Source: Escherichia coli (GTDB taxonomy: Bacteria > Pseudomonadota > Gammaproteobacteria > Enterobacterales > Enterobacteriaceae). Taken from it: DNA of 64,000 nt. The notes beneath the pieces are model-generated. The model saw only the letters and a program-made list of their open reading frames with translations, made no database searches and had not been told where the DNA came from. Where the stretch lies: the NCBI RefSeq assembly GCF_024298765.1, contig NZ_CP101210.1; one strand, written 5' to 3'. Within the stretch, counting starts at the first letter, position 1; every line of letters starts with the position of its first letter. This document shows, in pieces, positions 54,866 to 57,818 of this stretch. Made by a program: the position numbers and the translations under genes.

Positions 54866-54918
54866 AGGTCGGTCATGAGCCTGTTAATGACATCCCAGCC
54901 CATTGTGATAAATCGTGA
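54706..54918 (+). CDS. Hypothetical phage protein (TTG start)
   Basis: 70-aa ORF with strong SD gaaggaga about 7 nt upstream of TTG; protein-like composition; overlaps the O-like gene start. Confidence 0.45.
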
Positions 54919-55867
54919 TCTTGCATGCCGTATTGGTCTGAATGAGGCAATTGTGTTGCAGCAGCTTCATTACTGGCTGAATGAAACGAATTCAGGCACT
55001 GAGCATGGCGGAATTCGCTGGGTTTATAACACGACAGAACAGTGGCTGGAGCAGTTTCCGTTCTGGTCAGAGTCCACTCTGAAACGCACATTTGCAAGCC
55101 TGAAATCACTTGGGGTTTTGCGTCGCGAGCAACTCAATAAATCGAAGCGTGACATGACCAACTTCTACACGATCAACTATGAAAGTGAGCTTTTAGAAGA
55201 GGTCAAAGTGAACGAATCCATCAGGTCAAAATGCACTTCTCCATCGGGTCAAAGTGACCTGATGGATGAGCGCAAAATGACACGATCCATTGGTTCAAAA
55301 CGACACGCTGTCATCGGGTCAAAATGGCCCAATGATCTTACAGAGAATACAACAGAGATTACTACAGAGAATAAAACCTCTTCTCGTCCGGACGCTTCGC
55401 AACCGGACACGCAGATGGCTGAACAGGATTTTTTAACTCGCCATCCTGATGCGGTTGTATTCAGCCCTAAAAAGCGCCAGTGGGGAACGCAGGATGATTT
55501 GACCTGCGCACAGTGGCTCTGGAAAAAAATCATCGCTCTGTACGAGCAGGCCGCCGAATGTGACGGCGAAGTGGTACGTCCTAAAGAACCGAACTGGACA
55601 GCCTGGGCAAACGAAATTCGCCTGATGTGTGTACAGGATGGGCGTACTCACAAACAAATCTGCGAGATGTACAGCCGCGTCAGCCGCGATCCGTTCTGGT
55701 GCCGTAACGTGCTCAGCCCGTCGAAGCTGCGGGAAAAATGGGATGAGCTTTCCCTGCGCTTATCGCCGTCCGTCAGCACGTACACAGAAAAACGCGAAGA
55801 TCCGTACTTCAAAGCCAGTTACGACAACGTGGACTACAGCCAGATCCCGGCAGGATTCAGGGGGTGA
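54875..55867 (+). CDS. Replication initiation protein, lambda O-like, with internal iterons
   Basis: 330-aa ORF; N-terminal O-like domain; four to five direct DNA repeats of the ggtcaaaatg type at ~55196-55330. Confidence 0.8.
   Translation: MSLLMTSQPIVINRDLACRIGLNEAIVLQQLHYWLNETNSGTEHGGIRWVYNTTEQWLEQFPFWSESTLKRTFASLKSLGVLRREQLNKSKRDMTNFYTINYESELLEEVKVNESIRSKCTSPSGQSDLMDERKMTRSIGSKRHAVIGSKWPNDLTENTTEITTENKTSSRPDASQPDTQMAEQDFLTRHPDAVVFSPKKRQWGTQDDLTCAQWLWKKIIALYEQAAECDGEVVRPKEPNWTAWANEIRLMCVQDGRTHKQICEMYSRVSRDPFWCRNVLSPSKLREKWDELSLRLSPSVSTYTEKREDPYFKASYDNVDYSQIPAGFRG
55196..55330. repeat. Origin iterons inside the O-like gene
   Basis: Direct repeats gaggtcaaagtg, caggtcaaaatg, cgggtcaaagtg, tggttcaaaacg, cgggtcaaaatg spaced ~20-25 bp. 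Confidence 0.7.
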
Positions 55868-55869
55868 TC

Positions 55870-55962
55870 ATGAGTCTTTTGAATGAAGTTCAGAAATTCA
55901 TTGAAGCCCATCCGGGGTGTACTTCCGGAGACATTGCGGATGCTTTTTACGTGGGGGCTTAA
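55870..55962 (+). CDS. Small ORF (30 aa) translationally coupled between the O-like gene and the methyltransferase
   Basis: ATG at 55870 preceded by SD aggggg; stop overlaps the methyltransferase ATG (TAATG). Confidence 0.3.
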   Translation: MSLLNEVQKFIEAHPGCTSGDIADAFYVGA

Positions 55963-56615
55963 TGAGTAATAAATATTGTCAGGCGCTGGTGGAGCTGCGG
56001 AACAAACCATCCCATGAACTGAAGGAGGTGGGCGATCAGTGGCGCACGCCGGACAGCATTTTCTGGGGAATTAACACCTTGTTTGGCCCGTTTGTTCTGG
56101 ATCTGTTCACTGACGGTGATAACGCCAAATGTGCCGCGTATTACACGGCGGAAGACAACGCGCTGGCGCATGACTGGTCAGAACGCCTTGCGGAGCTTAA
56201 AGGTGCTGCCTTTGGCAATCCCCCATACAGTCGCGCCAGTCAGCATGAGGGGCAATACATCACCGGCATGCGTTACATCATGAAACATGCCAGTGCCATG
56301 CGTGATAAGGGCGGGCGCTATGTTTTCCTGATCAAAGCTGCCACCAGCGAAGTGTGGTGGCCGGAAGATGCGGACCATATTGCTTTTATTCGCGGGCGTA
56401 TTGGTTTTGAACTGCCTGCCTGGTTTATCCCGAAAGATGAGAAGCAGGTGCCGATAGGCGCTTTCTTCGCTGGTGCTATTGCTGTTTTTGACAAGACCTG
56501 GAAGGGACCGGCAATCAGCTACATCGGGCGCGATGAACTTGAGGCATGTGGTGAGGCCTTTCTGGCGCAGGTTCGCCAGCAGGCAGAAAAACTGGTCAGG
56601 GAGATGGTGGCATGA
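55962..56615 (+). CDS. Phage DNA N6-adenine methyltransferase (Dam-like)
   Basis: About 218 aa from MSNKYCQALVEL; motif IV FGNPPYS. Confidence 0.85.
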   Translation: MSNKYCQALVELRNKPSHELKEVGDQWRTPDSIFWGINTLFGPFVLDLFTDGDNAKCAAYYTAEDNALAHDWSERLAELKGAAFGNPPYSRASQHEGQYITGMRYIMKHASAMRDKGGRYVFLIKAATSEVWWPEDADHIAFIRGRIGFELPAWFIPKDEKQVPIGAFFAGAIAVFDKTWKGPAISYIGRDELEACGEAFLAQVRQQAEKLVREMVA

Positions 56616-57001
56616 AGCTGATCCTGCCTTTTCCGCCCAGCGTGAACACGTACTGGCGACACCCCAACAAAGGGGCGTTTGCTGGTAAGAGCCTGATAAG
56701 CGCGGCGGGGCGAAAATTCCAGAGCGCGGCGTGCGCAGCAATAGTTGAGCAGTTACGTCGTCTGCCGAAACCAACGTCGGCACCTGCTTCAGTGGAGATC
56801 GTGTTGTTTCCTCCGGATAACCGGATCCGCGATCTGGACAACTATAACAAGGCGCTGTTTGACGCCCTGACCCACGCGGGTGTGTGGGAAGACGACAGTC
56901 AGGTGAAAAGAATGCTGGTGGAGTGGGGACCGGTTATCCCGGGAGGGAAGGTCGAGATCACTATCAGTAAGTACGAGAAAACGGCGGGTGCAGCCGCCTG
57001 A
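56612..57001 (+). CDS. rusA: Holliday junction resolvase RusA-like
   Basis: 129-aa ORF; RusA-like pattern (PPSVNTYWRH ... DLDNYNKALFDALTHAGVWEDDSQV). Confidence 0.85.
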   Translation: MKLILPFPPSVNTYWRHPNKGAFAGKSLISAAGRKFQSAACAAIVEQLRRLPKPTSAPASVEIVLFPPDNRIRDLDNYNKALFDALTHAGVWEDDSQVKRMLVEWGPVIPGGKVEITISKYEKTAGAAA

Positions 57002-57020
57002 TTAAGAGGAGAAACGAAGT

Positions 57021-57818
57021 ATGAATAATCTGATGGTCATTGATGGTATTGAAGTTCGTCGTGATGCTTATGGTCGTTACAGCCTGAACGATCTGCACAG
57101 GTCTGCCGGTTCTCTGGATAAGCATAAGCCTGCATTCTGGCTCCGCAATGAGCAAACTGAACGTTTAATAAGCGAGTTGCAGATTTGCAACTCGGTCAAT
57201 ATAGAGCCAGTTAACGTTATTCGTGGCGGAAATAACCAGGGGACGTATGTCTGCAAAGAACTGGTGTATGCCTATGCAATGTGGATCAGCCCGTCATTCC
57301 ATCTGAAGGTGATCCGTACTTTCGACATGGTAACCAGCGCACCGGAAAAATTATCCGGACAGGCTGCTGACAAGATGCAGGCTGGTGTGATCCTGCTGGA
57401 CTTTATGCGCCGGGAATTAAACCTGTCTAACTCATCAGTGCTTGGAGCCTGTCAGAAGCTTCAGGAGGCTGTTGGCTTACCGAATCTGGCACCGCGCTAT
57501 GCCATTGATGCTCCTGCTGATGCACTCGATGGCTCAAGCCGCCCGACACTGTCACTGAGTGCACTGCTGAAGCAGTATGGTATCCGCCTGACAGCTAATC
57601 AGGCATATCACCAGATGGCGAAGCTGGGGATCGTTGAACAACGTGAACGATACAGCCGCACTGCGATTAACAACATCAAAAAATTCTGGTCGCTGACGGC
57701 GAAAGGCTGCATGTTCGGCAAGAACATCACCAGTCCCGCAAATCCGCGCGAGACGCAGCCGCATTTCTTCGAATCCCGATTCCCTGAGCTGTTAAAGCTG
57801 CTCGATACCGTTCATTGA
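57021..57818 (+). CDS. KilA-N domain protein (antirepressor-like)
   Basis: 265-aa ORF; N-terminal KilA-N-like region (VRRDAYGRYSLNDLHRSAG ... KPAFWLRNEQTERLI). Confidence 0.7.
   Translation: MNNLMVIDGIEVRRDAYGRYSLNDLHRSAGSLDKHKPAFWLRNEQTERLISELQICNSVNIEPVNVIRGGNNQGTYVCKELVYAYAMWISPSFHLKVIRTFDMVTSAPEKLSGQAADKMQAGVILLDFMRRELNLSNSSVLGACQKLQEAVGLPNLAPRYAIDAPADALDGSSRPTLSLSALLKQYGIRLTANQAYHQMAKLGIVEQRERYSRTAINNIKKFWSLTAKGCMFGKNITSPANPRETQPHFFESRFPELLKLLDTVH

Follow-up and report, generated by a model that had tools for sequence, protein, structure and literature searches.

The window analysed here is a 64,000-nucleotide stretch of Escherichia coli DNA (contig NZ_CP101210.1), and the feature under study is a 30-codon ORF that lies between a replication initiation O-like gene and a phage N-6-adenine methyltransferase gene (dam), with a RusA-family resolvase gene (rusA) following. 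The chain formed by the O-like gene, the short ORF, dam and rusA is tightly packed, with each member abutting the next. The features referred to in the text are given below, with the evidence for each in brackets.

54875–55867, + strand: replication initiation O-like gene, 330 aa (phrog_391 'replication initiation O-like', E = 8e-102)
55859–55864, + strand: Shine-Dalgarno-like AGGGGG, 5 nt before the ATG at 55870 (sequence; identical in full-length yfdN loci)
55870–55962, + strand: 30-codon ORF, read here as a pseudogene stump of yfdN, PerC family (ORF list, alignment, PHROG, PGAP)
55870–55946, + strand: 5′ remnant, yfdN codons 1–26, corresponding to predicted HTH helices 1 and 2 (alignment, PHROG, AlphaFold2)
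55946–55947, + strand: deletion junction, 396 bp missing (alignment; junction 40-mer searches)
55947–55962, + strand: 3′ remnant, YVGA and the stop, holding the dam Shine-Dalgarno (SD) and TAATG (sequence, alignment)
55962–56615, + strand: phage N-6-adenine methyltransferase gene (dam), 217 aa (PF05869, E = 9e-46)
56612–57001, + strand: RusA-family Holliday-junction resolvase gene (ORF list; RefSeq annotation of the identical protein)

Direct reading and the ORF list concur that the short ORF runs from an ATG at 55870–55872 to a TAA at 55960–55962, and that its 30 codons specify the product MSLLNEVQKFIEAHPGCTSGDIADAFYVGA. Its start lies 2 nt beyond the stop of the O-like gene (TGA, 55865–55867), and its own stop overlaps the dam ATG (55962) as TAATG at 55960–55964. 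This bears out the sequence-only reading, which had described a 30-aa ORF with a good SD fitting exactly between the O-like stop and the methyltransferase start, overlapping the latter as TAATG. The AGGGGG motif is the native yfdN ribosome-binding site (RBS) and lies within the final codons of the O-like gene; the SD of dam, GGGGG at 55953–55957, sits inside the short ORF, 4 nt before the dam ATG. Further along, the dam stop overlaps the rusA start as ATGA, the junction spanning 56612–56615. An ORF of 30 codons is by itself meaningless here, because 103 ORFs of at least 20 aa are listed in the same 6 kb. That this one is more than a chance ORF follows from the match of its residues 1–26 to a known phage family and from the alignment of its DNA with both ends of yfdN.

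Positions 55700–56150 were compared by megablast with complete E. coli genomes. We see two classes of match, consisting either of one collinear piece or of two pieces that span 847 bp rather than 451, and the extra DNA in the two-piece matches is annotated 'PerC family transcriptional regulator (yfdN)'. When the window is aligned with E. coli strain 20 there is one gap, at which exactly 396 bp are absent (132 codons, yfdN codons 27–158). Collinearity extends on the left of this gap through the O-like 3′ end, the RBS, the ATG and codons 1–26, and on the right through the final four yfdN codons (YVGA), the stop and dam, such that the DNA of the short ORF matches both yfdN ends base for base. Phage cdtI has the same 396-bp gap, as does an E. 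coli genome of 98.4% identity. In related E. coli prophages the full-length yfdN product is 162–164 aa long, or 162 aa when counted from the ATG.

With high confidence, we regard the 30-codon ORF as an in-frame internal-deletion derivative of lambdoid-prophage yfdN, a pseudogene stump in which the two terminal ends of the gene have been joined. One illegitimate 396-bp deletion took out yfdN codons 27–158, leaving the native RBS, the start and the first 26 codons fused to the final 4 codons, which carry the dam SD and the TAATG. The deletion is taken to be illegitimate rather than repeat-mediated because the microhomology at the breakpoint amounts to 1 nt (T); a repeat-mediated event was ruled out on the same ground. 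Set beside the YfdN/PerC family (PF06069; phrog_1324; including K-12 CPS-53 yfdN, SfV orf40 and ST64B Sb43), which occupies the same locus between an O-like replication gene and dam, the stump is alike in its RBS, its start, its first 26 codons, its last 4 codons and its TAATG junction with dam, and unlike in that codons 27–158 are absent. The stump is already known as a pseudogene in RefSeq annotation: in the identical and 98.4%-identical genomes, RefSeq/PGAP labels it 'hypothetical protein' and 'incomplete; missing C-terminus'.

An alternative in-frame start for the stump exists at GTG 55864, overlapping the O-like stop as GTGA. The ATG at 55870 is nevertheless likely to be the native start, because the N-terminal MSL is conserved in diverged relatives, being kept in both the 65%-identical Sb43 of ST64B and the 44%-identical homologue of F1055.

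Profile searches place the product within a family and indicate how much of the family protein has been lost. The matches of the stump are confined to its N-terminal part, where residues 1–26 hit phrog_23071 (E = 4e-13) and phrog_1324 (E = 9e-11); full-length YfdN matches phrog_1324, 'transcriptional activator', from end to end (E = 3e-76). The PerC domain (PF06069) of full-length YfdN covers residues 98–152 (39.4 bits against a cutoff of 22.6) and falls inside the deleted segment, and PF06069 gave no match to the 30-aa product. For this peptide Pfam returned only a sub-threshold MarR_2 hint (E = 0.2), and NCBIfam returned no match. Profile searches with the N-terminal part of YfdN likewise gave weak MarR-like hints, and a PDB sequence search with full YfdN found no match.

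An AlphaFold2 model of full YfdN was made from the single sequence, with a mean pLDDT of 69 (71–88 over blocks 1–50 and 82–91 over blocks 91–140). It displays a three-helix N-terminal bundle (H1, 3–13; H2, 19–25; H3, 31–43), a disordered linker at 50–86 and a helical PerC domain at 90–142. In this architecture the three-helix HTH is N-terminal and the PerC domain C-terminal, with the linker between them. Mapped onto this model, the stump would retain just H1 and H2, because the deletion begins after residue 26; H3, which is the presumed recognition helix, would be lost together with the linker and the whole PerC domain. Because all of these parts are missing, the stump is, as judged from its sequence, a YfdN/PerC-family pseudogene by descent and non-functional as a family member.

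Formally, a length difference of 396 bp is as readily described as an insertion as it is a deletion, and this symmetry, with nothing more, speaks for a short ancestral ORF from which yfdN arose via a 396-bp insertion. We give that idea practically no credence. The junction falls between helix 2 and helix 3 of the confidently modelled N-terminal HTH, and full-length homologues are found in diverged Salmonella phages. The Sb43 protein of phage ST64B is 65% identical to YfdN from end to end, the C-terminal '...EWYLSGNYVG' included, and keeps the C-terminal NYVG(A/S) motif. The homologue in phage F1055 has 157 aa and 44% identity, lies at the same position with dam next to it, and overlaps its upstream gene as ATGA. 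These two diverged relatives hold the long gene (157–174 aa) and never the short form, and the placement of yfdN between a replication gene and dam is common to E. coli strain 20, SfV, ST64B and F1055. By contrast, every short allele has one common junction with at least 97% identity around it. Since full-length homologues exist at 65% and 44% identity while the short alleles are so alike and share a single junction, the long form is the ancestral one. The sequence-only reading had pointed to homologous regions as the test of the short frame; what stands there is the full-length gene, in ST64B, in F1055 and at ~95% of homologous E. coli loci (2234 genomes with the long allele vs 115 with the short).

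These counts come from short diagnostic sequences. Of 5426 complete E. coli genomes, 115 carry a 40-mer that spans the junction of the short allele, at 121 places and across many serotypes and hosts; the 2234 with the long allele were found with a 40-mer across the intact left junction. Short and long alleles coexist in some genomes, for example BEN5202. A junction 25-mer was found in 61 IMG/VR contigs; among deposited phages, the junction 40-mer is carried only by cdtI. The 30- and 32-aa products are deposited at NCBI as 'hypothetical protein' from both E. coli and Salmonella. We also took the 80 IMG/VR loci nearest to the dam of the window and read the frame upstream of dam in each: 60 have the 162-aa gene, 14 have the 30-aa stump and 6 have something else, in some cases because the G-run beside dam differs in length. 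The neighbours of the short allele are themselves diverse: the adjoining O-like genes vary widely in length (122–331 aa), and dam is followed by either a 108-aa LexA-like gene or rusA (129/131 aa). The simplest reading of this distribution is one old deletion that then travelled with transmitted phages and through homologous recombination of the kind usual in lambdoid mosaics, in a yfdN that is a dispensable accessory gene decaying by other routes too, and beside a dam that has stayed intact.

Several further observations concern the yfdN locus and its surroundings. In phage Stx2a_WGPS2 (NC_049941.1, 9725–9970; record annotation), yfdN is interrupted by an IS, a separate inactivation. The G-run that forms the dam SD varies in length in IMG/VR contigs with full-length yfdN: with a G6 run (contig L067) YfdN is fused in frame to Dam, and with a G4 run (contigs L070 and L074) the yfdN stop is shifted to 7 nt past the dam ATG. 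These length variants may reflect true slippage at the homopolymer or errors of sequencing. In SfII, the yfdN–dam junction reads TGATG. On the other side of dam, a 327-bp gene for a 108-aa 'LexA family transcriptional regulator' lies between dam and rusA in strain 20, PS1Thumoskin9 and phage cdtI, and is absent from the window. E. coli 13TMH22 is 100% identical to the window across the stump region, but its downstream KilA-N gene is truncated and abuts a tail-fibre gene, whereas the KilA-N ORF of the window (57021–57818, 265 aa) is full length; the same early region thus sits in prophages at differing stages of decay.

The spread of the short allele is also an argument for a function of the peptide itself, for instance as a two-helix fragment that interferes with YfdN/Pch-type regulators of co-resident prophages. 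The allele is widespread and persists in the inducible phage cdtI and in many backgrounds, it occurs together with long alleles in genomes such as BEN5202, and there is no frameshift or nonsense change in the 5′ remnant among 58 distinct short copies. We nonetheless hold such a functional small protein to be extremely unlikely. Of the three HTH helices the peptide has kept just the first two, the recognition helix and the PerC domain being gone, and no family match extends beyond its N-terminal fragment. The homopolymer frameshifts and the IS insertion, moreover, are further decay of the sort expected for a dispensable accessory gene. As for the absence of disruptions, variation among the short copies is too low for this to carry statistical weight, and it is shared with the long alleles: five of the six stump variants are also found there, via ancestral polymorphism or recombination, and because of this sharing the variation has no power to separate constraint from recency.

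We turn now to how the stump may be expressed. Promoter and terminator scans found no promoter-like or + strand terminator-like site in the stretch from the O-like gene through the stump to dam. The promoter scan gave 0–1 sites each in the window region and in the intact-yfdN locus, which is not above shuffles, and the sole promoter-like site in the scanned window region is at 57002–57029, downstream of rusA. The SfV record (U82619) annotates a −35/−10 pair for dam in the 3′ part of orf40 (yfdN), 65–91 nt before dam; this segment falls within the 396-bp deletion of the window, and a consensus scan did not recover the annotated promoter in the intact yfdN locus. The stump would be transcribed within the rightward early operon. 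Because of this setting, with no promoter- or terminator-like sites around it and with the RBS and ATG unchanged, it is probably still translated, into a 30-residue peptide without a function of its own.

Ribosomes that terminate at the TAATG would then probably start again on dam, as would those that have finished full-length yfdN. The arrangement resembles known stop/start-overlap coupling (ATGA/TAATG termination–reinitiation) in its one-base overlap of stop and ATG and in having the downstream SD inside the upstream ORF. It differs in that the geometry is the unchanged yfdN–dam junction, not one made for the short ORF, and that the junction varies among relatives. Coupling of this kind would be an inherited by-product, not an adaptation. 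The suggestion that the ORF could be a coupling leader or a small protein is in this way upheld for the coupling geometry; a dedicated leader or an evolved small protein is not what we find, the ORF being two yfdN ends joined by a 396-bp deletion.

A stronger version of the coupling idea would have the mini-ORF kept by selection as a device whose translation melts a hairpin hiding the dam RBS, with reinitiation at the TAATG. The TAATG overlap and the SD inside the ORF are both present. With the segment of the predicted SfV dam promoter deleted, dam here would have to depend on transcription and translation from upstream, and of 68 complete copies of the short allele 67 have an intact dam. However, all the signals are inherited from yfdN, and the yfdN–dam junction is itself variable, with G4, G5 and G6 runs and the TGATG of SfII. 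The sharing of stump variants with long alleles leaves no selection signal specific to the short ORF. It is also true that the deletion is in frame and that both junctions are preserved, but this is weak evidence for selection because one deletion in three is expected to be in frame anyway, and either of the other frames would end within 7 nt past the dam ATG or run on into dam as a fusion (ORF list). A short ORF conserved in diverged relatives, which would be the mark of a dedicated coupling leader, is not seen. On balance, we consider a selected coupling device unlikely.

The hairpin in this proposal does have a counterpart in structure predictions for the window allele. In the MFE structure, 55896–55909 (stump codons 9–14) pairs with 55955–55967 (the dam SD and AUG) in a helix of 13 bp with one bulge, giving unpaired probabilities of 0.03–0.71 across the five dam SD bases and 0.14–0.25 for the dam AUG. 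At −20.4 kcal/mol the duplex is more stable than shuffles are on average (−13.7 ± 2.5), and 1.2% and 1.8% of shuffles did as well in two runs. In the same direction, ST64B has G>T changes in both arms of the helix. The prediction would favour a coupling device, but the whole-region fold is no better than that of shuffles (z = −0.91), and other yfdN segments pair with the dam RBS equally well or better. Natural variants (F10Y in strain 20, GCT>GAT in cdtI) break pairs without compensation. The duplex does not stand out in strain 20 (p = 0.14) or in ST64B (p = 0.20), and in F1055 it is worse than shuffles; a pairing of the stump's 5′ segment with the dam RBS was accordingly rejected as a feature of the family. 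An Rfam scan of 55300–56500 gave no match at E ≤ 1.

Occlusion of an RBS by long-range pairing, opened by translation upstream, is known from the 'Min Jou' interaction between the coat and replicase genes of MS2. The window allele is similar in that a 5′ segment of the upstream ORF is predicted to pair with the RBS downstream. It is dissimilar in that the helix finds no support in covariation or in diverged homologues, and in that the fold does not surpass shuffles. We regard the helix as a chance complementarity of the G5 run to a CCC-containing stretch of codons. If it were real, translation of the stump would matter more for dam than as a mere by-product.

Taken to their limit, the hairpin and peptide ideas would mean that the stump is not neutral debris: either a hairpin made by the deletion, which brings codons 9–14 to within ~45 nt of the dam RBS, makes dam translation strictly dependent on the mini-ORF, or the peptide antagonises the YfdN/Pch regulators of co-resident prophages. 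We judge this to be very unlikely. If true, the hairpin or antagonist effect could explain the spread of the allele through many E. coli and Salmonella prophages.

The start of dam also touches on the stump, as an in-frame GTG at 55917–55919, inside the short ORF, lengthens the dam frame to 232 aa. The record of phage cdtI starts dam at the GTG equivalent to window position 55917. The equivalent position is a C, giving CTG, in 37 of 58 short-allele copies. Since the upstream GTG is not conserved, the 217-aa protein from the ATG at 55962 is the likely product.

In the literature, yfdN has been described as 'the K12 unique PerC homologue' and was deleted for reporter assays (PMC5931665). Our search of the literature found yfdN mentioned only in this capacity, as the K-12 PerC homologue of that report, and found nothing on the deletion allele.

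In short, the 30-codon ORF very probably represents yfdN with its interior removed, and its biological weight is little: a deletion has hollowed out a dispensable accessory regulator gene of lambdoid prophages, the ends of which still make up a short ORF. For annotation, the 30–32-aa 'hypothetical proteins' and the N-terminally extended dam of cdtI should be taken as a yfdN pseudogene and, after it, a 217-aa dam. For the hunting of small ORFs there is a caution, in that a mini-ORF that is well placed, equipped with an SD and overlapped stop-to-start with its neighbour can be nothing more than what a deletion has left of the ends of a gene.
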